Assembly (NCBI GenBank): GCA_963652075.1
Contig: CAVJRQ010000089.1
Location: 337 to 64,336 of the forward strand
Direction: 5' to 3'
From: Acutalibacteraceae bacterium
Lineage (GTDB): Bacteria; Bacteroidota; Bacteroidia; Bacteroidales; Bacteroidaceae
Length of the DNA stretch: 64,000 nucleotides
Positions 19,025 to 46,193 of this stretch are shown one piece after another. Within the stretch, counting starts at the first letter, position 1; each line of letters starts with the position of its first letter. Below the pieces are notes generated by a model. It made no database searches and was not told the origin of the DNA. It saw only the letters and a list, made by a program, of their open reading frames with translations. Both the position numbers and the translations under genes were made by a program.

Positions 19025-19116
19025 CAGCCAAACGTTGCAACGAAATACAGCCAAACGCTGCAACGAAACACAGCCAAACGTTGCAACAAAACACGGCCAA
19101 ACGTTGCAAAATTGCT
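19025..19116. repeat. Tandem array A1: 4 x 23-bp units, core palindrome CGTTGCAACG
   Basis: Units start at 19025/19048/19071/19094: cagccaaacgttgcaacgaaata, cagccaaacgctgcaacgaaaca, cagccaaacgttgcaacaaaaca, cggccaaacgttgcaaaattgct. Confidence 0.95.
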
Positions 19117-19147
19117 TAAAATATTTGGCGTTTCTAATTCATCATTG

Positions 19148-19155
19148 TACTTTTG
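19148..19155 (+). promoter_or_regulatory. -7 box TACTTTTG for the AAA+ ATPase gene, overlapping a half repeat TTGCAACGAAAT
   Basis: TAnnTTTG match 25 nt upstream of ATG 19180. TTGCAACGAAAT (19153-19164) repeats the array core. Confidence 0.5.
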
Positions 19156-19179
19156 CAACGAAATCAACCGGGAATAGGC

Positions 19180-20454
19180 ATGAAAGATTATAAAAAAAGA
19201 ATAGCAGACAAACTATTGGAATATAGGCTTGAAGAAGTAGGCGCAGTACTCATAGAAGGGCCAAAGTGGTGCGGAAAGACGACCTCTGCCGAGCAACAAG
19301 CCAAGAGTGTGCTATATATGGCAGACCCGGACAACCAAAAGAACTATCTGGAAATGGCTGAACTTGGGATAAAAATGCTCCTCAAAGGAGATAATCCCCG
19401 ATTGATAGACGAGTGGCAGATAATCCCCCAGATTTGGGATGCCATCAGATTTGAAGTTGACCACCGAGGCAAAGAAGGGCTATTTATCCTAACCGGTTCG
19501 GCCGTTCCGGCATCGACAGAAAGAATCCACCACACAGGTACCGGACGATTCGCATGGATTACGATGCGCCCTATGTCGCTATGGGAATCCGGAGAATCCA
19601 CTGGCGAAGTAAGCATCAGCCGACTTTTCAAAGGGGATGCAGATATTGAGGGCTATAACAAACTCAATATTGAAGATATCGCTTTCCTTGTATGTCGCGG
19701 TGGATGGCCCAGTGCCACGACCAAAAGCAAACGTGCCGCCTTACGGCAAGCATACGACTACCATGACGCTGTCGTAAAAACCGACATTTCAAGAGTAGAT
19801 GAAGTAACAAGAAGCAGCGAGCGTACCAAACTACTGTTACGTTCGTACGCTCGGGCACAAGGCGGTCAAGTGAGCATCGAAGCCATTAGACAAGACATGA
19901 TAAACAATGACGATGAGAGTCTGGCCGAAAGAACCGTTATGAGTTACATCGGTGCTCTCAAGAAGATTTTCGTCATCGAAGACATGCCTGCATGGAATCC
20001 CAACCTACGCAGTAAAACCGCCATCCGCACAGCCGAGACCCGATATTTTGTAGACCCGTCCATTGCAGTAGCCGCTTTAGGCTTAGGCCCAGACGACCTC
20101 ATCAACGACTTGGAAACTTTCGGGTTGCTCTTTGAAACCCTCTGTGTCCGTGACCTTCGCGTATACGCCGATGCGATAGACGGCAATGTCTATCATTACC
20201 GCGACAAGAACGGTTTGGAATGCGATGCCGTGCTACATCTTCGCAACGGCTCTTATGGTCTCGTCGAAATCAAATTGGGCGGCGCACCAGCCATCGAGAA
20301 AGGGGCTTCTACCCTAACCAGTCTCGCCTCAAAGATAGATACCACCAAGATGAAGGCTCCCGCTTTCATGATGGTACTCACCGCCATTGGCAACTACGCC
20401 TATCGGCGCAAAGACGGAGTATACGTTGTACCTGTCGGTTGTTTGAAGGACTGA
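19180..20454 (+). CDS. COG1373-type AAA+ ATPase with C-terminal DUF4143 / PD-(D/E)xK-like domain
   Basis: Walker A GPKWCGKTT, Walker B RLIDEWQ, C-terminal GLECDAVLHLRNGSYGLVEIKLG (D ... ExK pattern). The start is taken at MKDYKK. Confidence 0.8.
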   Translation: MKDYKKRIADKLLEYRLEEVGAVLIEGPKWCGKTTSAEQQAKSVLYMADPDNQKNYLEMAELGIKMLLKGDNPRLIDEWQIIPQIWDAIRFEVDHRGKEGLFILTGSAVPASTERIHHTGTGRFAWITMRPMSLWESGESTGEVSISRLFKGDADIEGYNKLNIEDIAFLVCRGGWPSATTKSKRAALRQAYDYHDAVVKTDISRVDEVTRSSERTKLLLRSYARAQGGQVSIEAIRQDMINNDDESLAERTVMSYIGALKKIFVIEDMPAWNPNLRSKTAIRTAETRYFVDPSIAVAALGLGPDDLINDLETFGLLFETLCVRDLRVYADAIDGNVYHYRDKNGLECDAVLHLRNGSYGLVEIKLGGAPAIEKGASTLTSLASKIDTTKMKAPAFMMVLTAIGNYAYRRKDGVYVVPVGCLKD

Positions 20455-20482
20455 TATCCCCCATTGGAAGTTCGTTCATAAA
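20381..20482 (+). repeat. Left copy of ~100-bp direct repeat (3' end of the ATPase gene plus ~30 nt downstream)
   Basis: The 74 nt at 20381-20454 differ at only 2 positions from 23330-23403. Homology (cattggaa.t..gttc..aaa) decays after the stop codon. Confidence 0.9.
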
Positions 20483-20522
20483 TGACAAGCAATAGGTATG
20501 CACCATTTCGCAATATTATTCG

Positions 20523-20530
20523 TATTTTTG
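20523..20530 (+). promoter_or_regulatory. -7 box TATTTTTG for sulfatase-anSME
   Basis: TAnnTTTG match 24 nt upstream of ATG 20554. Confidence 0.5.
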
Positions 20531-20553
20531 CAAGCAATCAACAAAAATACAAT

Positions 20554-21993
20554 ATGGACAAGAAACTACTCTACTGTACAGGCTTATTGGCCGTTGCCTT
20601 ACCAGGTCAGGCTGCCACAGAAGCCCATGCTGCCGACAAGCAAAAGGCGACCCCCGACCGCCCAAACATCATATTTATCCTTGCCGACGACCTCGGACTG
20701 GGCGACCTGTCATGCTATGGCAGCCAGTGTATCAAGACACCAAACATCGACAAGCTGGCCGAAACGGGTACCCGGTTCACGAATAGCTATGCAGGCTCCG
20801 GCATCAGTTCGCCATCACGCTGCTCACTCATCACCGGCAAGAACACAGGTAATACCACCATCCGTGACAATACCTGCACCGCCGGAGGACTGACGGGGTA
20901 CAAGATTAATCCCAATGGCGACACCACCATCGTGAGAAGAGCCAACATTCTTCCAACAGATACCACCATCGCCACCGTCCTGAAGACAGCAGGCTACAAG
21001 ACCTGTCTTGTCAACAAGTGGCACTTGGACGGTTACGACCCTAAGGCATCCCCCATCTACAGAGGCTTCGACGAGTTCCACGGTTGGTTAATCAGTACCG
21101 TAGAGTCAAACTCACCTTATTATTACCCATACAACCGATTCGAGAACGACAAACTCATCCACATCGAGGCGAATGAGCACGACAAGCACGTGCGTCATAA
21201 CACCGACATATCCACCGATGATGCCATCGGCTTCATCAAGCGCAACCGGAACAATCCTTTCTTCCTCTATCTCGCCTTTGATGCACCCCACGAGCCATAC
21301 ATTATCGACAACACCTCTTGGTACGACGATGAGTCGTGGGACATGAACGACAAGCGATACGCCTCGCTCGTTACCCATATGGACGCAGCCATCGGAAGAC
21401 TTCTGAAAGTATTGGATGAGTTGAAACTCCGTGAAAATACCCTAATCATCTTCGCTTCCGACAATGGCGCCGCCGTGCAAGCTCCCCTGAAACTCTTCAA
21501 CTGCAACGCAGGCTTCCGTGGTCGCAAAGCACAACTCTACGAGGGCGGAATCCGTGTACCTTTCATCGTCAACCAACCCAACAAGGTACCCGTGCAGAGC
21601 TTGGACAACATCATCTACTTCCCCGACGTGATGCCTACCCTCGCAGCCCTCACCGGTTCAGAAGGGGCATTGCCACAGGGATATAACGGCATCAACATAC
21701 TGCCACTCTTCTATGGCAAGCAGAACTACCAAGACGGCAAGCCGGTAAATACCGACAACCGGCTCTTGTACTGGGAATTTCCAGGCAAACAGCGTGCGGC
21801 ACGCAAGGGCGACTGGAAGTGCGTAACCATCCAGAAGGATGCACCCCTCGAACTATACAACTTGAAGGAAGACCCTACCGAAAGCCACAATCTCGCCAAA
21901 GAGTATCCCGAGATGGTGGAACAATTCGACAAGGAGATGAGAGCGGCACGCAAACCGTCGCCCAACTGGCCTCTCCCCGATGACAACAAGTAA
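20554..21993 (+). CDS. Sulfatase (arylsulfatase family), Ser-type formylglycine motif
   Basis: Signal peptide, PNIIFILADDLGLGD, and the motif SSPSRCSLITGK (S-x-P-x-R, i.e. Ser rather than Cys at the FGly position). Confidence 0.85.
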   Translation: MDKKLLYCTGLLAVALPGQAATEAHAADKQKATPDRPNIIFILADDLGLGDLSCYGSQCIKTPNIDKLAETGTRFTNSYAGSGISSPSRCSLITGKNTGNTTIRDNTCTAGGLTGYKINPNGDTTIVRRANILPTDTTIATVLKTAGYKTCLVNKWHLDGYDPKASPIYRGFDEFHGWLISTVESNSPYYYPYNRFENDKLIHIEANEHDKHVRHNTDISTDDAIGFIKRNRNNPFFLYLAFDAPHEPYIIDNTSWYDDESWDMNDKRYASLVTHMDAAIGRLLKVLDELKLRENTLIIFASDNGAAVQAPLKLFNCNAGFRGRKAQLYEGGIRVPFIVNQPNKVPVQSLDNIIYFPDVMPTLAALTGSEGALPQGYNGINILPLFYGKQNYQDGKPVNTDNRLLYWEFPGKQRAARKGDWKCVTIQKDAPLELYNLKEDPTESHNLAKEYPEMVEQFDKEMRAARKPSPNWPLPDDNK

Positions 21994-22002
21994 AGAAGGT
22001 AT

Positions 22003-23202
22003 ATGGCCGACCAAGACTTCGCGCGCCCCTTCTCCAGGCCACTCTACGTGATGCTGAAACCAACAGGAGCCAGCTGTAACCTTGCCTGCAAGTACTGCTA
22101 CTATCTGGAAAAAGCGGATTTATACGCCAAGGGCTTCATGGACGAAAAGCTGTTGGAGCATTTCACCAAGGAGTATATCGAGATGCAAACCGTGCCGCAA
22201 GTACTCTTCACCTGGCATGGAGGCGAGCCGCTTCTGCTGCCCGTCTCCTATTACGAGAAAGCACTGGAGTTTCAACGGAAATATGGCAGGGGAAGAGAGA
22301 TAGACAATGTCATCCAAACCAACGGTACACTGCTCACCGACGAGTGGTGCGAGTTTCTGAAGAAGAACCGTTTTCTTGTGGGCATCTCCATAGATGGCCC
22401 ACAAGAATACCATGACCGTTATCGCCAAAACAAACAAGGCTTGCCTTCATGGCAAAAGGTGATGGATGGAATCCACCTGCTCAACAAGCACGGCGTGGAA
22501 TGGAACGGAATGGCCACGGTAAATGCCTACAACGTAAAACACCCCCTGGAGTTCTATCACTTCTTCAAGGAGATTGGCTGTAAATACATCCAGTTTGCCC
22601 CCATCGTGGAACGGAAATATCAGACACATCTCTCCCACTTGTTGGATGCACACCACTCCTTACTGACAGAGGAGAGCATCACTCCCGAGGACTGGGGCAA
22701 CTTTCTCTGCACCATCTTCGACGAATGGGTACGCCACGACGTGGGCGAATATTTCGTGGAAATCTTCGACAGCATCCTATCCAACTGGGTGGGAGAAGCA
22801 CCAGGCATCTGCATTTTCGGAAAAGAATGCGCCAATGTCGGCGTGATGGAGAAGAATGGCGACGTATACTCATGCGACCATTTCGTTTTCCCCGAGTTCA
22901 AGTTAGGGAACATCAAAGAAGACTCATTGGTCTCCTTGTTCTATGGCAAAAAACAACAAAAATTCGCACAGTTGAAGTCCCGCAGTTTACCCCAACAATG
23001 TCGAGAGTGCAACTTTCTTTTCGCCTGTCACGGCGAATGTCCCAAGAACCGTTTTGCCAATGACAGATACGGAAATCCAGGGCTCAACTACCTCTGCGAA
23101 GGCTATCGTCACTTCTTTGAGCATGTAGCTCCCTATATGGAATGGATGAAGAATGAATATCTGGCAGGCGGTGCGCCTGCCAACATCATGAAAGTTCTAT
23201 AA
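22003..23202 (+). CDS. Anaerobic sulfatase-maturating enzyme (radical SAM, SPASM)
   Basis: CNLACKYCY radical-SAM cluster motif near the N-terminus, C-terminal Cys-rich SPASM region (CRECNFLFACHGECPKNR), 399 aa, directly downstream of the sulfatase. Confidence 0.88.
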   Translation: MADQDFARPFSRPLYVMLKPTGASCNLACKYCYYLEKADLYAKGFMDEKLLEHFTKEYIEMQTVPQVLFTWHGGEPLLLPVSYYEKALEFQRKYGRGREIDNVIQTNGTLLTDEWCEFLKKNRFLVGISIDGPQEYHDRYRQNKQGLPSWQKVMDGIHLLNKHGVEWNGMATVNAYNVKHPLEFYHFFKEIGCKYIQFAPIVERKYQTHLSHLLDAHHSLLTEESITPEDWGNFLCTIFDEWVRHDVGEYFVEIFDSILSNWVGEAPGICIFGKECANVGVMEKNGDVYSCDHFVFPEFKLGNIKEDSLVSLFYGKKQQKFAQLKSRSLPQQCRECNFLFACHGECPKNRFANDRYGNPGLNYLCEGYRHFFEHVAPYMEWMKNEYLAGGAPANIMKVL

Positions 23203-23265
23203 TCCTTTGTAACTTCACGGAACAAAGATTACACGGGCAAAGGCAAAGAGTGGCATTCCGAAACA

Positions 23266-23329
23266 CAGCCAAACGTTGCAACAAAACCCGTCCAAACGCT
23301 GCAACGAAATACGACCAAACGTTGCAACG
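23266..23329. repeat. Tandem array A2: 3 units of the same 23-bp repeat as A1
   Basis: Units start at 23266/23289/23312: cagccaaacgttgcaacaaaacc, cgtccaaacgctgcaacgaaata, cgaccaaacgttgcaacg. The last unit runs straight into the gene remnant. Confidence 0.92.
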
Positions 23330-23403
23330 CCGCCATTGGCAACTACGCCTATCGGCGCAAGGACGGAGTATACGTTGTACCTGTCGGTTGTTTGAAGAAC
23401 TGA
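23330..23403 (+). pseudogene. Remnant of the COG1373 ATPase gene (last 23 codons + stop), right copy of the direct repeat
   Basis: Encodes AIGNYAYRRKDGVYVVPVGCLKN*, versus AIGNYAYRRKDGVYVVPVGCLKD* at the end of 19180-20454. There is no start codon and no upstream coding sequence. Confidence 0.9.
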
Positions 23404-23470
23404 AATTCTTCATTGGAACTCTGTTCGGAAACCGTTGATACAGTGTAAGAAAGCCCTTGCATTGATTGAA

Positions 23471-23580
23471 TGACAATTGTCAGCAAGGTGAATGACAATT
23501 GTCAGAAACGTTTACGACAATTGTCAGCAACATGGATGACAACTGTCAGCAACCTTTACGACAGTTGTCAAAACAGCTTG
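23471..23580. repeat. Tandem array B: 5 x 22-bp units, core palindrome TGACAATTGTCA
   Basis: Cores at 23471, 23493, 23515, 23537, 23559 (tgacaattgtca x2, cgacaattgtca, tgacaactgtca, cgacagttgtca). Unit 5 contains the nrdG stop codon. Confidence 0.95.
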
Positions 23581-24020
23581 ATGGCCGTAAGCTTACCATC
23601 ATGTATCTGGTAGAGTCGCTGATTGGTGGTAGGGGATTTGAGTCCTCCCAGACGTTGGATGTAAGGACCGAGTTTGAGGTAATCAAGCCATGCGGCATCG
23701 TAACCATCCGGAAGAACGGAACGTCCGGAATACCATGCGGTCTTGAGGTCAGAGAACCGCTCACGAAGGAGAAGAGAGAGGCGACGCACCTCGTCCGGCT
23801 CACCGTCACCTCCCATAAAACAGACGCAAGTGACAGCAGGGACATAGGTACGGACAAGGTCTGTCAAGAAACCGTCCGTGACAGCCTCTCCCTTGTCCTC
23901 CCACAGCCAAGGGCTATGGCAGCCCTGGCAATGGATGGGACAGTTGGAGATGTTGAGCGCCAACGTCACTTCGTCCGGGATTTCCTGACAGACGATGTCG
24001 TAACTATAACATTTCAGCAT
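23568..24020 (-). CDS. nrdG: Anaerobic ribonucleoside-triphosphate reductase activating protein
   Basis: 150 aa. Radical-SAM cluster CPIHCQGCHSP. Overlaps the nrdD stop by 7 nt. Confidence 0.88.
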   Translation of the reverse strand: MLKCYSYDIVCQEIPDEVTLALNISNCPIHCQGCHSPWLWEDKGEAVTDGFLTDLVRTYVPAVTCVCFMGGDGEPDEVRRLSLLLRERFSDLKTAWYSGRSVLPDGYDAAWLDYLKLGPYIQRLGGLKSPTTNQRLYQIHDGKLTAIKLF

Positions 24021-26122
24021 TTTATCTCTCCGTGTTCCTTTGCGTAATAGCGACGGGCCGCTTCTTGTTGACGGGCCGCGGAGAAGTTGCTGACACGTTT
24101 CATGTATCCGATGATACGCGTCAAGTAGTCCAGATTCTCACTGCCACACTTAGGACATTTATGCAGATAGTGCTTCGTAATGTGTCCGCAGTCGTTGCAG
24201 ACGGTGTTGGGGATGTTGAAGGTGAAGTAGTTGCAACCCTCCACCGCAGCCACGCGCAGCAACTGACGATATTGTTTTTTGGAGAGGTGCTCCGCCAGGT
24301 TGAGGTGAAGCGCGGAACCTCCCGTCAGGTGTTCGATGTACTTGCGACCATGCAGGCGGAACTTGTCGATGATATTCTTCGAGTGGTCCTCTACAATATA
24401 GAAATAGCTGTTGTAGCAATCGCGCGGCACCACGTAACCGTCCTCCTTGTCCCACTTGGCGTGCTTCACTCCCACGTTCTCCGCAGGAATCATCTCGCAG
24501 TTGAACAAGGTATCCTTGGTACGGTAGCGTTTGTTGTACTCTTCCACCAGGCCAAGTACCTGTTGCACATACTCCACGTACTTGGGATTGTCGCTAATCT
24601 CGATACCCAGGAATTCGGCGGACTCCACCAGACCGTTGATACCCACCGTGAGGTATTGGCGGCCGATGTTGATATAGCCGGCATCGAACAGAGGCAACAT
24701 GCCGTTGCGCTGCAGGTTCTTCAGGTTTTCGTCGTAGGCGAGCTGCACTTTATGCACGAGGTCTACCACCTCTGTCAGGAACGACATGTAATCCATGCCG
24801 TTGTTAACGGCGTATTGCACGCAGCGGTTGAGGTTGATGGTGAGCACGCTCTTCGAGCCCGTGGAGACACCGCCGGCACCCAACGTGTAGCTGAACCCAT
24901 TGTCCTGTATCTCGTTACGCAAGCGGCAGCAGGATGCCAACGAGTCGGCGTTGTCGCTCATGTAGGTAAAGAAGCTATGTCCCTCGGCATACATCTCCGC
25001 GGTGAAATCACCCCATTCTTCGTCCTTCACGTCATTGTTTTCAGTGAGCAGCGCCATGGTCTCTACGGGGAAGGTCAACGGAGTCTTCAGTCGCTCGGCG
25101 TTGAACCACTTCATGAAGCGCTTCTGCAACCAGGAAAGGGAGTCCCATTCAGGCTTCTCCCCGTCGGGGAAGACAAACTCGCCGAAGAGGCTCTCAAAGT
25201 AAGGTCTGTCGTAGTAGGAGATATTCCAGAACACCGCCTGAAAGTTACGCGCCCCCGTAGGTTGGTTGATGGAATAGACAATCTGCTCGAAACAGTCGGT
25301 GATAACCTTGTCGATGGTGCGGTGTTTCAGGGAGAGGTCTACCACCTCGTCCGCCCGTTTATAATAATCCTTACCGTACTCCTTACCGATGAAGTAGTTC
25401 ATGTACATAAGGAATTCGGGAGTGGCGCAGGCACCGCTCAACATACTGGAGACGATGAACACCAGATTGACGAAGCCGCCGCAAAAAGACTTCAGGTTGG
25501 TAGGTTTGGAGGAGTTTCCGCCCACGGAGAGTGTTCCGTTGAGCAACCATGGATACATGGTGATGCTGGCGCAATAGTTGGCCAAACTGGTCTCGTCGTT
25601 TTTGTAGACGAAGTGGTTGTTGAGCATACGGATGTATTTGTCGGAGAACTCCTTGCCATACATCTCCTTCATGCGGTCAGTGAGCAAACGCCGGTTAAGA
25701 CGGATGAAGCCGGACTTGGGCAACTCGCCTATCAACGTGGCGATGTTCTTGCGCTCCACGTTGGCGTTGGAGTCATACTTACTGCCCGTAGCGGGATTCT
25801 CTGCCCGGCAGTAGCTTATCAGAAAGTCGAGACGATCACGCACCTCGCGATCCTCGGTATGACTTTGGCGATAGAGCATGTAGGACTTTGCCACGGCGAA
25901 ATAACGTTCAGACATCAGTGCCGCCTCCACCTGATTCTGTATCTCTTCCACACTCATCCCGTTGGTTATACGCAAATGGGACAGGATATTCGTCAAATCT
26001 TCCTCGGTAGCGAATGCTCCCACGGACAAGAAAGCCTTGCGTATGGCATTCTTGATCTTCTCAACAGAAAACAGTCTGCGTTTCCCGTCGCGCTTCACAA
26101 TAATCGTTTCCGCACTACTCAT
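24014..26122 (-). CDS. nrdD: Anaerobic ribonucleoside-triphosphate reductase
   Basis: 702 aa. N-terminal ATP-cone, C-terminal Zn ribbon CNDCGH...CPKCGS and glycyl-radical region TRIIGYMKRV. Confidence 0.93.
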   Translation of the reverse strand: MSSAETIIVKRDGKRRLFSVEKIKNAIRKAFLSVGAFATEEDLTNILSHLRITNGMSVEEIQNQVEAALMSERYFAVAKSYMLYRQSHTEDREVRDRLDFLISYCRAENPATGSKYDSNANVERKNIATLIGELPKSGFIRLNRRLLTDRMKEMYGKEFSDKYIRMLNNHFVYKNDETSLANYCASITMYPWLLNGTLSVGGNSSKPTNLKSFCGGFVNLVFIVSSMLSGACATPEFLMYMNYFIGKEYGKDYYKRADEVVDLSLKHRTIDKVITDCFEQIVYSINQPTGARNFQAVFWNISYYDRPYFESLFGEFVFPDGEKPEWDSLSWLQKRFMKWFNAERLKTPLTFPVETMALLTENNDVKDEEWGDFTAEMYAEGHSFFTYMSDNADSLASCCRLRNEIQDNGFSYTLGAGGVSTGSKSVLTINLNRCVQYAVNNGMDYMSFLTEVVDLVHKVQLAYDENLKNLQRNGMLPLFDAGYINIGRQYLTVGINGLVESAEFLGIEISDNPKYVEYVQQVLGLVEEYNKRYRTKDTLFNCEMIPAENVGVKHAKWDKEDGYVVPRDCYNSYFYIVEDHSKNIIDKFRLHGRKYIEHLTGGSALHLNLAEHLSKKQYRQLLRVAAVEGCNYFTFNIPNTVCNDCGHITKHYLHKCPKCGSENLDYLTRIIGYMKRVSNFSAARQQEAARRYYAKEHGEIKC

Positions 26123-26235
26123 AATCGTTGTTTTTTGCTAACTGTGCTTATTATTAATCGTTATATATTTCGGTGTCATGCAACAAGGTTTGCCATCGAA
26201 CGAACCTGCGGAGGGGTATCTCCGCTCTTGCCCGG

Positions 26236-26243
26236 CAAAGATA
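26236..26243 (-). promoter_or_regulatory. -7 box TATCTTTG for nrdDG (implies a ~100-nt leader)
   Basis: Reverse complement of caaagata, 114 nt upstream of ATG 26122. Confidence 0.4.
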
Positions 26244-26476
26244 ACAAGGCTTTATAAAATGCCAAACGAGTAATGCGAATTTATTCAACCCACAAAGTGA
26301 TTTAGAAAATAAAGTTGTCCAAAACCGGCTATGCTACATCTGTATATCAATATATTACGAAGACGTACAAATGAAAAAGTTTTCCAAAACGAAAACTCTT
26401 TCCAAATTACAGGAGCACAAAAGACAAGATTATCACCTCACTGACAGCCCTTAGCAGAAAGGCTTTCCGATGTGTT

Positions 26477-26494
26477 TGTAACAGGATTGTAACA
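26477..26494 (+). promoter_or_regulatory. Candidate Pho box: TGTAACA-ggat-TGTAACA (7-bp direct repeats, 11-bp phasing)
   Basis: A perfect 7-mer duplicated with a 4-nt spacer. It ends 32 nt upstream of a -7-like box GACCTTTG (26526-26533) and 67 nt upstream of the phosphate transporter ATG. Confidence 0.45.
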
Positions 26495-26560
26495 CCTATG
26501 ACACTACATTATAACATGGCCTACCGACCTTTGCGGCCATAATAACTAACGCTACAACAA

Positions 26561-28810: not shown

Positions 28811-28822
28811 TGCGAACAGACC

Positions 28823-29863: not shown

Positions 29864-29898
29864 GACGGCCATCAGCCGGACATATAGTAATAGGTATA

Positions 29899-29943
29899 CA
29901 CCCCAACCGGACAAATGCCCACAGAGGCAGTCCGGTTGGGGTG
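29899..29943 (+). terminator. Hairpin terminator after the porin gene (14-bp stem)
   Basis: caccccaaccggac ... gtccggttggggtg. Confidence 0.6.
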
Positions 29944-30046
29944 TAACAGTTCTGAAACATCATCGTAACCGAAACTTATCCTCGCCGTTATGCGAAAGAA
30001 ACGCCACAGGCCGACCTTTGCAGCGTAAAACAAAAAAGGATATACG

Positions 30047-36758: not shown

Positions 36759-36773
36759 GAGGAAGAGGAGTTG

Positions 36774-37355: not shown

Positions 37356-37394
37356 TCAATTCTCTCTGCCGCGTCGCTTACCGTTATCTGGTTG

Positions 37395-37402
37395 CAAAAG
37401 TA
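37395..37402 (-). promoter_or_regulatory. -7 box TACTTTTG for the ECF sigma gene
   Basis: Reverse complement of caaaagta, 40 nt upstream of ATG 37355. Confidence 0.5.
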
Positions 37403-37487
37403 TGAAAAATAGAATAAAAAGAACCTTTTCCCGTACAAAAGTTTATCAGCAAAGGAATTTAGTATCAATTTGCGGTAATTTTCACCA

Positions 37488-39476: not shown

Positions 39477-39513
39477 AGTTTATTTCTGTTTAGAGTGCAA
39501 ATATAGTCTTTTT

Positions 39514-40896
39514 TCATGCCATGCGCAAGGCAAATGCCTTTTTACGGACACGGTAGTAGGTAAACCATACCGCCGTGCCGGTGACAATCCACGAAATGGG
39601 ATAGACGGCCATCAGCACTTCGTAGGTGGGATACTCACGCGCCACGGTGTAGACCCAGACAAGACGCAGGACGCACGTACCGAAGACCGTGAGGATAGTG
39701 GGTGTCATGGAATGGCCAAGTCCACGCATGGCGGCACCGCTGATTTCATAGGAACTGGCGAGGGACTGGAAGCAGAGCACGTAGAACATCCGCACGGCGG
39801 CATAGTTCGCCACCTCGGGACTGTCAGTGAAGAGACCGATAAAGAACGGGTTCTGCCAGGTGATGAAGAGGTTGAGCGCCCCGCAACAGAGGACACTCAG
39901 AATCATGCCCAACCGGAAGATGCGCCGGCAACGTTCTATCTCGCCGGCTCCATAGTTCTGGCTGGTGAAAGTAACCGTGGCCTGCACAAAGGCGCTGACG
40001 ACGAAATAGCAGTAGTATTCATAGTTGAGTTCCACGGCAGACCCGGCCACGGCATCGGAACCGAATCCGTTGATGGCGGACTGGATAAAGACGTTGGCAA
40101 ACGAGAAGACCATGCCCTGCAATCCGGCCGGCACGCCGATACGCAACATCTTATGGAGTTCGGGCTTGGCAATCTTGAGTTCCTTGACGTTGAGGCGGAA
40201 CGGATAAGTCTCATGCTTGAGGATGTAGACGATGATGGCAGCGTTGACCACATTGGAGACCACGGTCGCAATGGCCACACCCGCCACGCTCATGTGGAAG
40301 ACGATGACGAGAACCAGATTGAGTACGGTATTGATGATGCCCGATACCACCAAGCTGTAGAGCGGACGTTTGGTATCGCCCATGCTGCGGAGCACGGCGG
40401 CGCCAAAGTTGAATATCATGATGAAAGGCATGCCCAGGAAATAGATGCGCAGGTAGAGACTGGCCAAATCAATGACATCATGCGGCGTATCCATCAGTTC
40501 GAGGATGGGACGCGCCGCCACGAAGCCCACCACCATGAGCAACAGTCCGCTCACGACGGCTATCACCCCCACGGTCTGCACCGAGCGGTAGACTCCGGCA
40601 TCGTCTTTCTGTCCGATGTAATTGCCTATCACCACGCTGGCACCCACGGAAATCCCTACAAACAGGTTGATGAGCAGGCTGATGAGGGAGCCGTTGCTAC
40701 CCACCGCCGCCAAGGCCTGACTGCTGGCAAAGCGGCCTACCACCGCCACATCCACCGAGTTGAACAACTGCTGCAGGATGCTGCTGGCAGCCAAGGGCAG
40801 GGCAAACATCAGCATCTTTCCCAGCAAGCCCCCGTGAAGCATATCCATGCGTACTGTGCCGTGGCCGCTCTCTTTCTTCATCTTCATTTTGTGCAA
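39514..40896 (-). CDS. MATE family efflux transporter
   Basis: 12 predicted helices. The N-terminal block LGKMLMFALPLAASSILQQLFNSVDVAVVGRF is MATE-typical. The true start may be the internal MDMLHGG. Confidence 0.85.
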   Translation of the reverse strand: MHKMKMKKESGHGTVRMDMLHGGLLGKMLMFALPLAASSILQQLFNSVDVAVVGRFASSQALAAVGSNGSLISLLINLFVGISVGASVVIGNYIGQKDDAGVYRSVQTVGVIAVVSGLLLMVVGFVAARPILELMDTPHDVIDLASLYLRIYFLGMPFIMIFNFGAAVLRSMGDTKRPLYSLVVSGIINTVLNLVLVIVFHMSVAGVAIATVVSNVVNAAIIVYILKHETYPFRLNVKELKIAKPELHKMLRIGVPAGLQGMVFSFANVFIQSAINGFGSDAVAGSAVELNYEYYCYFVVSAFVQATVTFTSQNYGAGEIERCRRIFRLGMILSVLCCGALNLFITWQNPFFIGLFTDSPEVANYAAVRMFYVLCFQSLASSYEISGAAMRGLGHSMTPTILTVFGTCVLRLVWVYTVAREYPTYEVLMAVYPISWIVTGTAVWFTYYRVRKKAFALRMA

Positions 40897-41011
40897 TACC
40901 TATTGTGTGTGTAATACCTATTATATACGCTCCTCACGCACCACCCCACTCCATGCGAAGCCGTGCCTCGGGGAATCGGGTGCAAAATTAGCTATAAGTT
41001 CGTTACGAACA

Positions 41012-41362
41012 TTACTTCTTCCGTTGTTCCTTTTTCTCCTCGGCGGAAATGCGGAACGAAGTGTAGAGTTCAAGGACGGCGGCGACGGTAAGGCAAAGCA
41101 CCCACTCGTTATTCTCGAAGAAGAACATGAAGAAGGTGGTCATCATGAGCAGCAAAGCGGCCAGTATCTGTTGACGGCGGAGACGGCGGATGATGAAATT
41201 GCCGCCCTCGTAGCGGTCGAGCAACTGCGGTATGGCGAACAGTGCGGAGCCTATCCCATAGAGATAGGGCGAAGCCGACCAACCGGTAACAAACGAACCG
41301 CAACCCAACAGCAGCAAGACACCGCCCGAATAATACATCCACGAAAGATTCTTCATAGTCAT
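41012..41362 (-). CDS. Small integral membrane protein, unknown function
   Basis: 116 aa, four hydrophobic segments, basic tail. Its start overlaps the upstream stop (ATGA), suggesting translational coupling. Confidence 0.6.
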   Translation of the reverse strand: MTMKNLSWMYYSGGVLLLLGCGSFVTGWSASPYLYGIGSALFAIPQLLDRYEGGNFIIRRLRRQQILAALLLMMTTFFMFFFENNEWVLCLTVAAVLELYTSFRISAEEKKEQRKK

Positions 41363-41673
41363 TCCTCCCCCTCTATAATATATATGTCCTCGTTGGCCGT
41401 TTTCATCAGATACTTCTCACGCGCGATTTTCTCTATCGCCTCCGGGTTTGTCTCCAACTGGTTGAGCCGTTCCGTGTCGCGCACATAGATGCCGCGGTAT
41501 TTCTCAATCTCTTCATTGAGCGTGCGTATCTCCTGCTTGTGTTGGAAGCGGCGAATCAAGTTATTCTCGTCCAGAAAGACAAAGATAAGCAAAAACACCG
41601 ATACCGCTATAAGGTATTTGTTTCTGCCCACTATATGATAAATGGCAAGAAAGACGGAGAATAATCTGCTCAT
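41359..41673 (-). CDS. Septum formation initiator (FtsB/DivIC-like) protein
   Basis: 104 aa. One N-terminal TM helix, then a coiled coil (RTLNEEIEKYRGIYVRDTERLNQLETNPEAIEKIAREKY). Confidence 0.7.
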   Translation of the reverse strand: MSRLFSVFLAIYHIVGRNKYLIAVSVFLLIFVFLDENNLIRRFQHKQEIRTLNEEIEKYRGIYVRDTERLNQLETNPEAIEKIAREKYLMKTANEDIYIIEGEE

Positions 41674-41749
41674 GGCCTAATTATGAATTAACTACGGCAA
41701 AGGTAGAAATATTTCCGGCTCCACAGGCACGGGAAACCGATATTTTAAT

Positions 41750-41757
41750 GTACATTT
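41750..41757 (+). promoter_or_regulatory. -7 box TACATTTG for dnaX
   Basis: TAnnTTTG match 34 nt upstream of ATG 41791. A divergent TACCTTTG (41698-41705, minus strand) serves the FtsB-like gene. Confidence 0.5.
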
Positions 41758-41790
41758 GCAACATTACTTCTAAAGAAACACGTTTCCGCC

Positions 41791-43620
41791 ATGGATAATT
41801 ATATCGTATCGGCCCGTAAATACCGCCCCTCCACCTTCGACACGGTGATAGGGCAGCGTGCGTTGACTATGACACTGAAGAACGCCATCGCCTCGCACAA
41901 GTTGGCAAGCGCCTACCTGTTTTGCGGACCGCGTGGCGTGGGAAAGACCACCTGCGCCCGCATCTTCGCCAAGACCATCAACTGCCTGCACCCGACAGCG
42001 AACGGAGAGGCGTGCAACGAGTGCGAATCGTGCAAGGCCTTCAACGAGCAGCGTTCGTACAACATCCATGAACTGGATGCCGCGTCGAACAACTCGGTGG
42101 ATGACATCCGCGCCCTGATAGAGCAGGTACGCATCCCTCCCCAGGTCGGCAAATACAAGGTGTACATCATCGATGAGGTGCACATGCTGTCGCCCGCGGC
42201 CTTCAACGCTTTCCTGAAGACGTTGGAAGAGCCTCCCTTGCATGCCATCTTCATCTTGGCGACAACGGAGAAGCACAAGATTATCCCCACGATTCTCTCC
42301 CGCTGCCAGATTTACGATTTCAACCGCATCACGGTGAACGACACGGTGGAGCATCTGAAATACGTGGCGGAGAAGGAGGGCATCGAAGCCGAGCCCGAAG
42401 CCTTGAACGTGATTGCGCAGAAAGCGGACGGAGGTATGCGCGACGCACTTTCCATCTTCGACCAGATGGTCAGTTTCTCGGGCGGCCACATCACCTACAA
42501 GAGCGTGGTGGAGAACCTCAACGTACTGGACTATGAGTACTTCTTCCGCATGACCGACATCCTGCTGGGGAACAAGGTGGCGGAAGCGATGTTGCTCTTC
42601 AACGACATCCTGAGCAAAGGTTTCGAGGGGAACATCTTCATTGCGGGACTGGCAGGCCACTTCCGCAACCTGCTCGTGGGCCGCGACGCTTCGACACTCT
42701 GTCTGCTGGAGGTGAGCGATGCGGTGAAGTCGCGCTATCAGCAACAGGCGCAACAATGCAAACCGACCTACCTCTACAGGGCGATGAAACTTTGCAACGA
42801 CTGCGGAATGGCCTATCGGGAAAGCAAGAGCAAACGCTTCTTGGTAGAGCTGACGTTGATAGAGTTGGCACAGGCAGCCGCGGATGACGACGGAGACTCG
42901 TGTGGGCATCGCCCTACGAAGCGATTAAACCCCATCTTCAAGGCACAGACCCAGGCTCAGCCTCAGGTCACAGCCACCGCCACAGGCAATAAGGACACCG
43001 GCAACGCGAATCGTGTGAACCCACAAGCAGTGAACGCGCAAACGGGCAACCCGTCTGTCGGTAACCCACAAACAAGTGGGACAGAGAGCCCTTCACCACA
43101 AGCCGATACGATCCGGAAGATTCCTACGATGAACATGAATCGGGTAGGATTCTCCATCAAACGTACACAAGAGGTGCTGGAGAGCAAGAACGTTGTGGCC
43201 AAATCCACCCAACCGAACCTGTTCAGCGCACAGCCTCCTGCCGGGGAGACTGCGGACCAACCGTTTGACGAAGAGGCGCTGAGGTATCAGTGGCTTCGTT
43301 TCGCCAACGAGTTGCCCAACGAGGAGAAATCGACCGCACAGCGCATGAAGACAATGACGTTCAGCAAACTGGCCGATGCCATTGTGGAGGTTGCCGTCGA
43401 CAATGAGTGGGTGGAGAGCTCCATGCGCGCCATCGCGCCCCGCATTGAGCAGCATCTGCGCACCAGTCTCCACAACAAACAAATAACCCTGCGGTTCAAG
43501 GTAACCCAACAAACGGAACGGAAACGCGCCTACAGCCGGGTGGAGCAGTTCCAACTGATGGCGGAGAAGAACCCCGCCCTACAAAAACTGAAAGAGCGCT
43601 TCGACTTGGAGTTGTCGTAA
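41791..43620 (+). CDS. dnaX: DNA polymerase III subunit gamma/tau
   Basis: YRPSTFDTVIGQ, Walker A GPRGVGKTT, zinc module CNECESC, IIDEVHMLS, sensor SRC. Confidence 0.93.
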   Translation: MDNYIVSARKYRPSTFDTVIGQRALTMTLKNAIASHKLASAYLFCGPRGVGKTTCARIFAKTINCLHPTANGEACNECESCKAFNEQRSYNIHELDAASNNSVDDIRALIEQVRIPPQVGKYKVYIIDEVHMLSPAAFNAFLKTLEEPPLHAIFILATTEKHKIIPTILSRCQIYDFNRITVNDTVEHLKYVAEKEGIEAEPEALNVIAQKADGGMRDALSIFDQMVSFSGGHITYKSVVENLNVLDYEYFFRMTDILLGNKVAEAMLLFNDILSKGFEGNIFIAGLAGHFRNLLVGRDASTLCLLEVSDAVKSRYQQQAQQCKPTYLYRAMKLCNDCGMAYRESKSKRFLVELTLIELAQAAADDDGDSCGHRPTKRLNPIFKAQTQAQPQVTATATGNKDTGNANRVNPQAVNAQTGNPSVGNPQTSGTESPSPQADTIRKIPTMNMNRVGFSIKRTQEVLESKNVVAKSTQPNLFSAQPPAGETADQPFDEEALRYQWLRFANELPNEEKSTAQRMKTMTFSKLADAIVEVAVDNEWVESSMRAIAPRIEQHLRTSLHNKQITLRFKVTQQTERKRAYSRVEQFQLMAEKNPALQKLKERFDLELS

Positions 43621-43807
43621 GTGCAGGAAAACAGGAAACATACGCACAGCTGTCTCCTACCCTCTCGCTTGGTTTGGGCAGAAGGGGAGATATGTTGAAG
43701 GAATTCGGGCATTCATTGATTATTGTTGCAGAATGATTACACGATGGATATATTTGCAACAAAAACGTACGTATATCCAATAATTATTAACTTGTGGAAT
43801 CAGAATT

Positions 43808-44551
43808 ATGTGTAACGCAATGAATGCATTGATACGGAACTTTCAGCCTATCTCGCTGGAAGAGATGGACGGCATCAGACTGATGAACCGTACCGACACC
43901 AAGTTTGTGATGTCAATCGACAAGTTAACAACCTTGCTTCGTATGGCAGGAGATGAATACAGGGTGCAGGAGATAGACGGCAAGCGCAACATGAACTACG
44001 CCACGGTCTATTACGACTCCAAGGACTATGTCTTCTACAATGCCCACCACGACGGGCATGCCGGCAGACAAAAGGTGAGGGTGCGCTCGTACGTGGACAG
44101 CGACCTGAGCTTCCTTGAGGTGAAGACCAAGGACAACCACGGCAAAACCCACAAATGCCGCATCTCCGCGCACGGGTTGGGAGACGAAGCGTCAATGGAC
44201 TTCCTGCGGCACAACTTGCGAGTTGACCCGAAGTCCTTGGAGAAGAAGATAGCCAACCGCTTTCATCGCGTCACGCTCGTCAACAAGAACAAGACCGAAC
44301 GCCTCACGATAGACACCGACCTGGAGTTTGACAACCTCTCTACCGGCCGTCACTGCTCGCTCAGCCATTTGGCGATAGTGGAGCTGAAACGCGACGGGCT
44401 GAAGGAGTCTCCCATTTTGGCGATGTTGCGCCAGCTGCGCATCCACCAGAGCGGCTTCAGCAAGTATTGCATCGGAGAGGCTCTCACCAACCCCTCCTTG
44501 CGGCTCAACCGCATGAAGCCACGGCTTCAGGAGATCATGAAGATTTCGTGA
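43808..44551 (+). CDS. VTC-domain (triphosphate-tunnel, polyphosphate-polymerase-like) protein
   Basis: 247 aa. Alternating charged beta-strand motifs KVRVRSY, LEVKTKD, LTIDTDL, IVELKRD and FSKYCIG are as in VTC/CYTH tunnel folds. Confidence 0.75.
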   Translation: MCNAMNALIRNFQPISLEEMDGIRLMNRTDTKFVMSIDKLTTLLRMAGDEYRVQEIDGKRNMNYATVYYDSKDYVFYNAHHDGHAGRQKVRVRSYVDSDLSFLEVKTKDNHGKTHKCRISAHGLGDEASMDFLRHNLRVDPKSLEKKIANRFHRVTLVNKNKTERLTIDTDLEFDNLSTGRHCSLSHLAIVELKRDGLKESPILAMLRQLRIHQSGFSKYCIGEALTNPSLRLNRMKPRLQEIMKIS

Positions 44552-44605
44552 CGACAAGGTCACGAATACAACAAACCGGAAATTGACAAAACAATCATTT
44601 GCATT

Positions 44606-45265
44606 ATGAACAACTTTGAAATCGTAACCAATGACCTGGCGGCAATGATTCCGCTCATGACAAAATTCCTCTTCAACACCCTTACCGTGTGGATTATCAC
44701 CCATTGGCTCTATTTCCCGAAAAGTCGGCAGCGCGAGTACTATTTCACTTTTATGCTGATGGCCGTCAGCGTCTTCTTCCTCATAAACCTTTTGGGAGAC
44801 GTACAGATAAAGATAGAGTTCGCCCTCGGACTCTTCGCCATCTTCGGAATTATCCGCTACCGTACCGAATCGATGCCCGTGCGCGAGATGACCTATCTGT
44901 TTCTGATACTTGCCTTGTCCGTCATCAACGGTTTGTCGGCAAGCATGGGATGGGCCACGTTGGTTGGTGTCAACCTGCTTTTCATACTCACCACCTGGTT
45001 CTTTGAGAACATAAAGGTGAAGGGATGCTTGGCGGTGAAACTGGTACAGTATGACCGAATCGAACTCATCAAGCCCGAACTTCGCGAGCAGCTCATTGCC
45101 GACCTGCGCGAGCGCACGGGACTCGACATCGTAAAGGTGGAGGTTGGCGGCATTGATTTTCTGCGCGACATGAGTGTCATAAAAATCTACTACCACACCA
45201 CCACGCCAGGAAGTTCCGTTGACGAACAGCTGAAAGTCCATTCTTATGAATATGAGCATATTTAA
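44606..45265 (+). CDS. DUF4956-like membrane protein
   Basis: 219 aa. Four N-terminal hydrophobic helices plus a soluble C-terminal domain. A usual genomic partner of bacterial VTC-domain genes. Confidence 0.65.
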   Translation: MNNFEIVTNDLAAMIPLMTKFLFNTLTVWIITHWLYFPKSRQREYYFTFMLMAVSVFFLINLLGDVQIKIEFALGLFAIFGIIRYRTESMPVREMTYLFLILALSVINGLSASMGWATLVGVNLLFILTTWFFENIKVKGCLAVKLVQYDRIELIKPELREQLIADLRERTGLDIVKVEVGGIDFLRDMSVIKIYYHTTTPGSSVDEQLKVHSYEYEHI

Positions 45266-45287
45266 CACGACAACAAAACAAGAGAAC

Positions 45288-46055
45288 ATGAAGAGTATCC
45301 TTTCCGTACACGGGCGCACGATTCTTGTCGGCCTGGCATTATTTGCACAGGGTATCGTGCCGGCCTTTGCCCAAAGCGACTCCGATTTCGGGGTTTGGCT
45401 GAATGCCGACGTAAAGAAAAAGATTGACAAACACTGGAGCGTGGACGGCGAACTGGGAGCGAAAACGCGCGACAACTCCAAGGAGATGGACCGCCTCAGC
45501 CTCGGTATAGGCACGGACTATAAGTTCAACAAGTACCTGAAACTTTCGGCCGGTTATAATTTCCTTTACGACCATCGCGCCAAGAAGCAGACTTACCACA
45601 AGGACGGGACGGTAAACAAGATTACCCCCTCCTATTGGTGGCCGCGCCACCGTTTCCTGTTGGGTGCGACGGGCAGCTACAGCATTGGCAATCTGGGATT
45701 GTCGCTGCGCGAGATGTACCAATACACCTATCGTGCCAAGGCGAAAAACAAAAAGTACGACACCGACACGGAGGAGTGGGAAGACGTGAAGAGCAAAAGC
45801 CTGCACATCTTGCGCTCGCGCTTTCTGGTGGACTATCGCATAAAGGGCACACCATTTACGCCGTACGGCAGCGTGGAGACCTATCACGGTGAAGGTGGAC
45901 TGAGGAAAACCCGCTATACACTCGGTACCGGCTTCTCCATAGCCAAGCGTCACGAGCTGAAACTCTACTGGCGCTACCAAGACTTGCGCCACAACGATGA
46001 CGACGAAGACCTCGACACCCATGTGCTTGGAGTAAGTTACAGTTTCAAGCTCTGA
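45288..46055 (+). CDS. DUF2490-like outer-membrane beta-barrel protein
   Basis: Signal peptide LALFAQGIVPAFAQ, alternating strand pattern throughout. The start at MKSILS removes the overlap with the upstream gene. Confidence 0.6.
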   Translation: MKSILSVHGRTILVGLALFAQGIVPAFAQSDSDFGVWLNADVKKKIDKHWSVDGELGAKTRDNSKEMDRLSLGIGTDYKFNKYLKLSAGYNFLYDHRAKKQTYHKDGTVNKITPSYWWPRHRFLLGATGSYSIGNLGLSLREMYQYTYRAKAKNKKYDTDTEEWEDVKSKSLHILRSRFLVDYRIKGTPFTPYGSVETYHGEGGLRKTRYTLGTGFSIAKRHELKLYWRYQDLRHNDDDEDLDTHVLGVSYSFKL

Positions 46056-46083
46056 CATTCGTCCACTGACAGTCGAACTTATA

Positions 46084-46193
46084 CGTAAGTACTTTCATGA
46101 GCCAACGTAAGTACTTACGTGAGCCATCGTAAGTACTTTCATCGGGCAACGTAAGTACTTACCCCGAGCAACGTAAGTACTTTCATCGGACTA
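46084..46193. repeat. Tandem array C: 5 x 22-bp units, core palindrome (A)CGTAAGTACTTACG(T)
   Basis: Units start at 46084/46106/46128/46150/46172. Units 1, 3 and 5 read cgtaagtactttcat..., units 2 and 4 read cgtaagtacttac.... Unit 2 forms the perfect 16-mer acgtaagtacttacgt (46105-46120). Confidence 0.95.

Follow-up and report, generated by a model that had tools for sequence, protein, structure and literature searches.

Short tandem DNA units of about two helical turns are familiar from plasmid iterons, which in pPS10, R6K and RK2 form two to seven direct repeats of 17-23 bp, at a spacing of about 22-23 bp, beside the gene of a winged-helix Rep protein. Autoregulators of the BrxR/CapW type (winged helix-turn-helix (wHTH)/WYL) are separate small repressors that act on inverted repeats; repetitive extragenic palindromes and bacterial interspersed mosaic elements (REP/BIME) are associated with RAYT transposases and form clusters in which units of about 35 bp alternate in orientation; and sopC of the F plasmid is built of 43-bp units, in one array per plasmid, next to the par genes. 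Within the Bacteroidales, Porphyromonas gingivalis carries BrickBuilt, a spacerless 23-nt minisatellite found in intergenic DNA at 19 copies per genome, and its BrickBuilt/PgRS units of 22, 23 or 41 nt occur in about 10-20 copies per genome with variable copy number (PMC4596501). Here we examine four arrays of 22-23-bp direct repeats, A1, A2, B and C, in 64,000 nucleotides of contig CAVJRQ010000089.1 (GenBank assembly GCA_963652075.1), hereafter the window, where they lie in an ordinary Bacteroidales-type chromosomal setting. The first of them stands directly upstream of a gene for an ATPase with AAA_14 and DUF4143 domains; other loci, strains and contigs compared with the window are referred to by number (L001 and upwards).

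DUF4143 has been assigned to the PD-(D/E)XK nuclease superfamily (PMC3424549), and the gene type, scored as the candidate defence system PDC-S01, is reported to rank fourth in frequency among defence calls in prokaryotes and to be the commonest single locus in genomes from the rumen, most such candidates still awaiting experimental validation according to one of the two surveys (PMC12988326, PMC13356809). Literature that names DUF4143, COG1373 or PDC-S01 handles the gene merely as a domain or a defence call, and the arrays described below did not turn up in the literature searched on these three names, on Bacteroidales minisatellites and on 22/23-bp tandem repeats. The four arrays are two unrelated classes, A1/A2 and B/C. 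We regard as probable the joint reading that the A arrays are cognate autoregulatory operators of the ATPase gene, and that B and C are dispersed minisatellites of the REP/BrickBuilt kind that are not tied to the ATPase.

Results

Four tandem arrays in the window

Tandem Repeats Finder (TRF), run over the 64-kb window with periods of 22-23 as the repeat class of interest, calls exactly four arrays: A1 at 19015-19109 (23 bp x 4.1), A2 at 23259-23329 (23 bp x 3.1), B at 23467-23570 (22 bp x 4.5) and C at 46083-46189 (22 bp x 4.7). The unit cores occur 6-10 times against 0.2-0.7 times expected, a count reached in none of 100 shuffles. The arrays and the features that belong with them, each with the evidence for it, are:

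19004-19118, forward strand: array A1, 23-bp direct repeats (TRF, sequence, register of the family logo, promoter phase)
19004-19026, forward strand: degenerate unit of A1 (sequence)
19027, 19050, 19073 and 19096, forward strand: GCCAA starts of the A1 units (sequence)
19124-19155, forward strand: Bacteroidota-type promoter of the ATPase gene, -33 TTTG at 19124-19127 and -7 TACTTTTG at 19148-19155 (sequence)
19180-20454, forward strand: DUF4143/AAA_14 ATPase-nuclease, PADLOC PDC-S01 (Pfam, PADLOC, AlphaFold (AF2), Foldseek)
23259-23329, forward strand: array A2, three 23-bp units, GCCAA/TCCAA/ACCAA at 23269, 23292 and 23315 (TRF)
23330-23418, forward strand: what is left of a second ATPase gene, its last 23 codons with the stop codon and about 15 nt beyond it (nucleotide identity, tblastn)
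23467-23576, no strand: array B, five 22-bp units, core TGACA-AY-TGTCA (TRF, strain comparison)
46083-46192, no strand: array C, five 22-bp units, core (ACGT)AAGTACTT(ACGT) (TRF)

TRF and the shuffles bear out the first-pass annotation, made from the letters of the window alone, in reporting A twice, B and C as direct tandem units of 22-23 bp, and gene calls agree with it that all four are intergenic and lie at gene boundaries. A1 is flanked by the divergent genes for GH106 and the DUF4143 ATPase, A2 and B sit between the convergent genes for the anaerobic sulfatase-maturating enzyme (anSME) and nrdG, and C is placed between convergent DUF2490 and tRNA-Ser. The palindromic cores that it had read are also there, CGTTG/CAACG in A, TGACAA/TTGTCA in B and (ACGT)AAGT/ACTT(ACGT) in C, but the palindrome of A is missing from homologous arrays and the full 16-bp palindrome of C is found in unit 2 only, AAGTACTT being common to every unit. 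A2 is 86-93% identical to A1 and shares its orientation; A1 ends, on the promoter side, with the unit at 19096, which diverges from the unit consensus in its 3' part. A search of the window against Rfam at gathering score, a check that the earlier reader had called for, leaves the arrays unmatched and returns tRNA-Ser as its sole match. Features of clustered regularly interspaced short palindromic repeats (CRISPR) are not seen either, the units being contiguous without spacers and no Cas domain being found among the genes annotated at 14-46 kb.

A 23-bp array accompanies the ATPase gene across species

Pfam finds AAA_14 plus DUF4143 in the window ATPase, and PDC-S01 matches it end to end (E 1.5e-63). 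Its AF2 model, with a predicted local distance difference test score of 95.5, divides into an AAA+ domain (residues 1-205), a wHTH (about 213-290) modelled as helix-helix-helix-wing, and a C-terminal PD-(D/E)XK domain (293-424) modelled as an alpha/beta nuclease-like fold. The nearest solved folds in Foldseek are archaeal AAA+-wHTH ATPases (2qen, 2fna), Orc1/Cdc6 on origin DNA (2qby) and STAND NTPases. A sequence search of the PDB with the family profile gave weak P-loop matches only, NCBIfam holds no model for the family, and exact-protein look-ups of the window ATPase and of DUF2490 returned no match.

Homologues with 86-91% amino-acid identity occupy other neighbourhoods, with OmpA and sigma factor genes in L003-L012 and with DUF2442/FdtA and tRNA genes in L013-L017, and a 23-bp array lies just upstream of the ATPase gene wherever upstream DNA is present (L016 begins 57 bp before the gene). 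The array units in these loci read ATTCTCAGCCAAATTGGGTAACG or AAACACAGCCAAACACTGCAACG, and copy number ranges from 3.9 to 5.9 among samples of one species. The palindrome CGTTGCAACG is not found in the arrays of these relatives, and is therefore not a family property and accidental in A. Nucleotide homology between the window and L013 extends over 19001-20455, that is from the first unit to the stop codon, and nothing beyond; judged from such alignments, array, promoter and gene make up a travelling module of about 1.45 kb. A second 424-aa gene of L017 was considered as an ATPase paralogue and rejected as unrelated. In L107/L108 another DUF4143 ATPase adjoins Porin_O_P, its 5' end and upstream region lying outside the sequence compared. 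The assemblies L014, L015, L016 and L107 break at or beside the ATPase module or its arrays, which is consistent with multi-copy sequence fragmenting short-read assemblies.

The association is general in the family. Scanning one genome per species with an alignment of eight ATPase sequences yielded 80 loci, with relatives 61-92% identical, of which 79 had sufficient upstream DNA for autocorrelation within the 300 bp before the gene. At least three copies at a period of 22-24 are present at 61 of the 79, with a period of exactly 23 in 60, and most of the remaining loci have two units as judged by eye; in TRF the 23-bp array ends 10-120 bp ahead of the start codon in most of the 80. Elsewhere, only about seven 23-bp arrays were met in about 0.8 Mb of flanks. 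The first-pass annotation had noticed a COG1373-type ATPase beside array A and had asked for enrichment next to DUF4143 ATPases, and for A-type arrays both are found well outside the window.

The record labels of the 80 loci name Bacteroidales, Lachnospiraceae, Oscillospiraceae, Treponema, Victivallis, Sutterella and others, and some of these labels are probably binning errors. In L018 and L019, labelled Clostridiales and Lachnospiraceae, Bacteroidota-type -7 boxes (TAnnTTTG) precede the ATPase gene, which makes mis-binning probable and the host range given by record titles overstated; true -35/-10 promoters at several loci indicate that Firmicutes-type hosts are real.

Extra cognate arrays were observed at L033 (7296-7381), L059 (3713-3785) and L093 (5637-5760), lying just behind the stop codon, at 2.2 kb upstream, or forming a second block, so that solo arrays like A2 are recurrent; no gene remnant was found beside the solo arrays of L033 and L059. 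Additional and more distant AAA_14-like paralogues have upstream direct repeats of their own (L020 7410-8774, L030 7404-8762, L032 2511-3722, L089 7743-9032, L075 76-1350 and 2683-3972), some of them 23-bp arrays with other units and others repeats of 17-20 bp spaced 37-43 bp. This suggests that the array principle extends past the ATPase subfamily analysed here, and such private repeats fit the idea of a private address that is taken up in the Discussion. Upstream of the AAA-ATPase_like/PDDEXK_9 genes of L099, L014 and L048 a search for arrays gave no clear period.

The variable core co-varies with the winged helix

Sixty-three arrays could be set in one register, which gives a unit of GCCAA, seven variable positions, AA-n-RAAA and four weakly conserved positions, and the window A unit, GCCAA ACGTTGC AACGAAACACA, fits this register. 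Over these 63 loci the distance at the seven variable unit positions was compared with protein distance by domain (Spearman correlation, Mantel test). Core distance follows residues 206-292, the wHTH (Spearman 0.33, partial 0.36, Mantel p <= 0.001), and is correlated neither with the nuclease domain (0.02, p 0.35) nor with the AAA+ domain (-0.03, p 0.74), although the latter is physically closest to the array. As the co-variation is confined to the middle domain, linkage or shared descent alone would be insufficient to explain it.

In a 15-residue sliding window the co-variation peaks at 201-215 and 241-260, and the best single columns are 251, 215, 250 and 234, each of which coincides with or adjoins the N-terminus of one of the three modelled wHTH helices. 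Lys at 251 is paired with GG at unit positions 10-11 in 9 of 10 loci, as against 0 of 52 others (p 5e-10); Asp or Glu at 251 is paired with C at position 10 (31 of 33 against 11 of 29, p 2e-6), and Asn at 251 with CAC/ACC. A change of R215 to Leu, Thr or Phe is accompanied by (C/G)TG at unit positions 6-8 (10/18 against 2/44, p 2e-5). TGC occupies positions 10-12 at all three loci that combine R251 with R215 in a protein at least about 91% identical to that of the window (the window itself, L013 and L018); at L074, the fourth locus with R251 and a more distant one, ACT stands there. The pattern reads like ordinary protein-DNA contacts, Lys with G and Asp/Glu with C.

The proposal that these cores are specificity-swapped sites of COG1373 paralogues thus survives for A, whose core co-varies with the wHTH, and is lost for B and C. 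For A the evidence of a specificity-swapped cis element of the COG1373 ATPase family is stronger than the earlier reader could have hoped, with one correction: recognition by a dimer had been expected, and direct repeats without a family-wide palindrome are read instead as one monomer per unit.

Array and promoter keep a fixed phase

In the window 52 bp separate the start of the last unit (19096) from that of the -7 box TACTTTTG, and about 20 other loci are alike; the -33/-7 assignment follows the consensus of Bacteroides promoters. Among about 30 Bacteroidota-type loci the -7 TAnnTTTG starts either 29-32 or 50-54 bp after the last-unit start, and the two classes are one unit length apart. At loci with TTGAYA/TATAAT boxes the -10 starts 41-44 bp after the last-unit start and the -35 follows unit position 19-20, so a fixed array-promoter phase holds in Bacteroidota-type and Firmicutes-type promoters. 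For A2 this phase is historical only, since a gene remnant follows it. On the opposite side of A1, the divergent GH106 promoter extends with its -33 region up to the left edge of the array. A half-unit overlapping the -7 and transcription start region of the window (TTGCAACGAAA) was rejected, as it does not recur in L004, L013 or L018.

A second, decayed module explains A2

The 89 bp at 23330-23418, joined directly to A2, are 93% identical in nucleotides to 20381-20469, and tblastn on this remnant finds residues 402-424 of the ATPase (96%, E 1e-9), as is seen through L001 too. A search for ATPase remnants beside B and C found only 23332-23400, which adjoins A2. As read from these alignments, A2 and 23330-23418 are a second module, the gene of which was deleted internally from the array edge to near its 3' end, and the junction of remnant and array ties the A array to the ATPase gene and not to the neighbouring genes.

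The genes run GH106(-), A1, DUF4143/AAA_14 ATPase(+), sulfatase, anSME, A2, B, nrdG(-), nrdD(-) and, later, DUF2490(+), C, tRNA-Ser(-). In the related species L110/L111, whose NrdG is 78% identical, GH106 follows nrdG after 99 bp (L110 7468-7567), and between the two genes there is no equivalent of window 19000-23576, sulfatase/anSME included. From this empty site the block from A1 to B is an insertion of about 4.7 kb, made up of one intact module and one decayed one (A2 plus remnant) together with the sulfatase/anSME pair and B; as the intergenic DNA of the L110 empty site is too diverged from the window, the junctions are placed approximately and not to the base. The further features of the two regions are:

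18978-18985, reverse strand: -7 box TACCTTTG of GH106 (sequence; the box recurs before GH106 at the L110 empty site)
20482-21993, forward strand: sulfatase (Pfam), enclosed by A1 and A2
22003-23202, forward strand: anSME, an anaerobic sulfatase-maturating radical-SAM enzyme (Pfam), enclosed by A1 and A2
46257-46347, reverse strand: tRNA-Ser(CGA), context and not part of the array (ARAGORN, Rfam)

The last B unit overlaps the stop codon of nrdG, and C borders DUF2490 on one side and the terminator hairpin of tRNA-Ser on the other. Direct copies of the A array enclose the sulfatase/anSME pair and could mediate its loss or duplication.

B and C belong to a dispersed 22-bp class

The B/C class, with a period of 22, a palindromic core of 12-16 bp and no GCCAA...RAAA boxes, is distinct from the A family. 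Eleven 22-bp arrays with an inverted-repeat core lie around the window genes and their homologues; Bacteroidales loci besides the window that carry them are L013/L017, L006, L028, L035, L045 (two), L060 and L086. Their size differs between strains, B having 5.5 copies in strain L001 against 4.5 in the window and C 8.8 in strain L098 against 4.7. C is itself known at two loci plus one relative, a related unit at L006 19389-19511, and is not present in species at about 70% protein identity, where its site carries other genes. Among these genes is a different ATPase-nuclease, of the AAA-ATPase_like (PF09820) plus PDDEXK_9 (PF08011) type (L099 4176-5738, L100 3114-4676); at L014 3-818 a gene of this type is divergent from a DUF4143 module, and the two gene types seem to share insertion hot spots. 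For B, a B-like array in L110/L111 stands at another locus, downstream of GH106, with the unit TGACAACTGCCGTACACGTGTT, identical to a B unit at 17/22 positions. In L107/L108, a closer relative, nrdG has downstream of it a 23-bp array (7515-7588) with another 16-bp palindrome, CATCCCGTACGGGATG. After that CATCCCGTACGGGATG array L107/L108 have a run of AGTTAACGG repeats of about 10.5 bp (7621-7734), and 4 kb beyond this run L108 has a 15-bp x 19.9 array (11237-11534).

Metagenome contigs were scanned for three GACARYTGYC cores at 22-bp spacing, and 80 B-family loci were examined. The family motif, GACA-NN-TGTC, occurs in at least 120 metagenome stretches, and each of two assemblies, ERZ826016 and Ga0256406, has at least about 15 different contigs that carry such arrays, which suggests many B-family copies per genome. 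Array size runs from 2.5 to 43 copies (80 loci). Of 68 arrays 65 are intergenic; by the orientation of the neighbouring genes, 13 contexts are convergent, 18 tandem and 5 divergent, so that convergent pairs, raised in the first-pass annotation, are over-represented relative to divergent ones. The genes beside them are housekeeping ones (rpoC, uvrA, glnA, glycoside hydrolases), no neighbour gene family recurs, and the DUF4143 ATPase profile matches none of the 363 open reading frames (ORFs) that flank the 68 arrays. The notion that one shared layout means one family fails on this dispersed repeat.

The arms of the B-family palindrome are conserved, and its central dinucleotide is mostly GT/AC. 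B-family copies in ERZ826016 share 55-110 bp of flank; the flanks of window B and C have nothing in common with each other, with L110 or with L006. Viral contigs scanned for two phased B or C cores gave 0 matches for each. The B/C class is multi-copy in Bacteroidota-type genomes, lies mostly near gene 3' ends and shifts in size between strains.

Composite arrays were observed in Ga0256406 (L119, L128, L138, L143), where CGTGAC-AGTT-GTCACG blocks abut CGTGAC-GGTC-GTCACG and CGTGAAAACAGTCATGACCTAT blocks, as if variants arise and amplify locally. In the 22-bp class numerous cores have at their centre a 6-bp palindrome of the kind typical of type II restriction sites (CAATTG, CAGCTG, AGTACT, CTCGAG, CTTAAG, CGTACG, CACGTG, CGATCG), among them window B and C, L013 9644-9711, L086 7384-7459, L108 7515-7588, L110 11027-11108 and L118 10652-10728; within the B family AATT/AGCT are less frequent than the centres AGTT/AACT, which are not palindromic.

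Discussion

In the model that we propose, the winged helix of the ATPase recognises the array upstream of its own gene, with one protomer per direct repeat. The wHTH would recognise the 7-nt variable core of the adjoining array, residue 251 at the start of the recognition helix contacting unit positions 10-12 and residue 215 contacting unit positions 6-8. As A consists of direct repeats without a family-wide palindrome, one monomer rather than a dimer would occupy each unit, and two to six protomers would line up head to tail directly upstream of the -35/-33 box and govern their own promoter. The position of the array immediately upstream of the core promoter makes self-control of transcription its most likely purpose, and such autoregulation would most likely hold a potentially toxic ATPase-nuclease at a set level. 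The anatomy of the arrays, their association with the gene, the co-variation and the phasing are observed directly, and from these we infer the binding and the direction of regulation. For B and C it is the dispersal and the copy-number variation that are observed, and we infer that the arrays work, if at all, at the DNA level, most likely as clustered sites for a dimeric protein encoded elsewhere.

Several points weigh against this picture. The co-variation is a correlation among loci that share descent, the other two domains of the protein serving as the internal control. About 18 of the 79 loci have fewer than three clear units, and at A2, L033 and L059 a solo cognate array persists without an adjacent gene. 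A binding site upstream of the -35 is seen more typically with activators, which bears on the sign of the regulation. As to B and C, several 22-bp arrays lie within about 0.4 kb of a DUF4143 module, 20-121 bp downstream of the DUF4143 stop codon in L028, L035, L086 and window B (after the remnant) and upstream of the gene in L013/L017 and L060; the class may thereby be loosely linked to DUF4143 modules via shared insertion hot spots, and B and C may also be neutral.

Of the other explanations, the one that survives best concerns B and C and takes them for the minisatellite cores of non-autonomous transposable elements, MITEs (miniature inverted-repeat transposable elements) of the BrickBuilt kind. 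BrickBuilt sets the precedent, as a spacerless 23-nt repeat in intergenic DNA at 19 copies per genome (PMC4596501), and the flank shared by the ERZ826016 copies is what such elements would leave. We nevertheless hold it to be a possible but unlikely account, since window B and C share no flank together or with L110 and L006 (terminal inverted repeats and target duplications were not searched) and since the BrickBuilt unit AGAYCATARTATCCTCTCRTRTG is unrelated and not palindromic.

For A, the array could be a hitch-hiking variable-number tandem repeat (VNTR), or a sequence-dependent part of the promoter's structure in the form of phased A-tracts or of an UP-like element, in either case unbound by the ATPase. 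The constant boxes are indeed A-rich and about 10-11 bp apart, the last unit abuts the -35, and copy number varies with the strain as that of a VNTR does, but the invariant CAA and the residue-to-base co-variation, specific to one domain, would be left unexplained, and we think this quite improbable.

To about the same small degree we would credit B and C as hairpin arrays in RNA or single-stranded DNA, acting as terminators, as stabilisers of mRNA 3' ends or as REP-like targets of a single-strand transposase. Their single strands fold better than shuffles, with z of -4.3 for B and -3.7 for C, which is expected of any palindrome array, and both the location mostly near gene 3' ends and the excess of convergent over divergent neighbours would suit such a role. 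The best folds, however, pair neighbouring units and are not single-unit hairpins, the palindrome centre is only 2 nt, B and C are free of terminator-like sites in a consensus scan, as is the DNA beside them, and there is no Rfam match. Arm mismatches of the G.T and A.C kinds number 57 and 48, without strand bias, and one family is found in both orientations relative to the flanking genes; with the lack of terminator features, these two observations argue against a role at the RNA level.

Very improbable is the unified scheme of the first-pass annotation, by which A, B and C would be one family, each array being bound by a different dimeric COG1373/DUF4143 paralogue. A arrays do pair with a DUF4143 ATPase, and the four palindromic arrays found 20-121 bp downstream of DUF4143 genes could be cited in its favour. 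The ATPase profile is absent from all 363 ORFs around the B-family arrays, the A family has no conserved palindrome, the ATPase arrays consistently have a period of 23 bp where that of the palindromic class is 22 bp, and the distant paralogues carry direct repeats spaced 37-43 bp and not palindromes. Least probable of all is that A represents iterons, in which case a small mobile replicon would have its replication origin or partition site here and the Orc1/Cdc6-like ATPase would be the initiator: the layout fits, with two to six direct 23-bp repeats next to the gene of a wHTH protein, as do the fold akin to Orc1/Cdc6 on origin DNA and the spread of the module over many contexts and phyla, but the modules stand in ordinary chromosomal neighbourhoods, a strict phase with their own promoter suits an operator better, a C-terminal PD-(D/E)XK nuclease is unlike Rep or Orc proteins, and, with homology between contexts confined to the stretch from array start to stop codon, there is no space for further replicon functions.

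A more speculative extension of the operator model, which we would rate as unlikely though worth stating, is that the 23-bp array is a docking platform on which an Orc1/STAND-like ATPase-nuclease assembles head to tail. Each PDC-S01 paralogue would then be tethered to a private address with a readable code, release or activation, for example by phage infection, would be the switch, and a dimeric protein would have in the 22-bp palindromic arrays an address system of its own, independent of the first. The A-array result is a new, testable feature of a very abundant and uncharacterised gene family: a cognate array and a residue-to-base code give an experimental handle on an abundant candidate defence family, as swaps can be designed from the sequence alone, and private arrays may explain how dozens of paralogues coexist without cross-talk. 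Annotation gains as well, in that solo arrays flag lost modules and arrays flag module boundaries. The 22-bp palindromic minisatellites, for their part, are a widespread Bacteroidota-type feature and not a local oddity; they break assemblies and vary by strain, and could serve as typing markers.

Comparison with described systems

The layout, not recognised in the first-pass annotation as that of a described repeat class, does have precedents, as the 23-nt minisatellite BrickBuilt already has short tandem units of about two helical turns (PMC4596501). With its spacerless units of about 22-23 nt, intergenic and multi-copy like those of the B family, BrickBuilt is the closest described relative of B and C, and the B/C result extends a known kind of repeat. 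Its unit is, however, without similarity to those of A, B or C, and it has a leader and a tail with IS5-like inverted ends, whereas window B and C have no flank in common with L110 or L006. REP/BIME are like the B family in being dispersed, palindromic, intergenic, near gene 3' ends and present in many copies; B and C differ in their strictly head-to-tail 22-bp units, and no RAYT is found among the neighbouring genes, the genomes as a whole not having been searched. F sopC resembles B and C in its tandem units that each carry an inverted repeat, in sopC for a dimeric protein, while B and C are chromosomal, dispersed and without par genes.

For A1 and A2, BrxR, CapW and RptR (PMC12255303) offer the likeness of a defence-associated locus under a cognate operator upstream of the promoter. 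In A, by contrast, the putative DNA-reading domain lies within the effector-like ATPase-nuclease itself, and the operator is made of tandem direct repeats. Archaeal Orc1/Cdc6 (2qby) shares with the ATPase an AAA+ domain followed by a C-terminal winged helix (Foldseek E about 5e-6) and has repeated elements beside its gene; the TM-scores are low (0.22-0.27), the ATPase has an additional nuclease domain, the origin recognition box (ORB) elements are arranged differently from the A arrays, and no origin function is indicated for A. Plasmid iterons with their Rep protein would provide the best analogue for A1 and A2. In both, direct repeats adjoin the gene of a winged-helix protein, for the A arrays a putative reader, and specificity co-evolves with it; what sets the A arrays apart is that they are without replicon features, are phased with their own promoter, and accompany a single chromosomal gene for an AAA+ ATPase with a PD-(D/E)XK nuclease.

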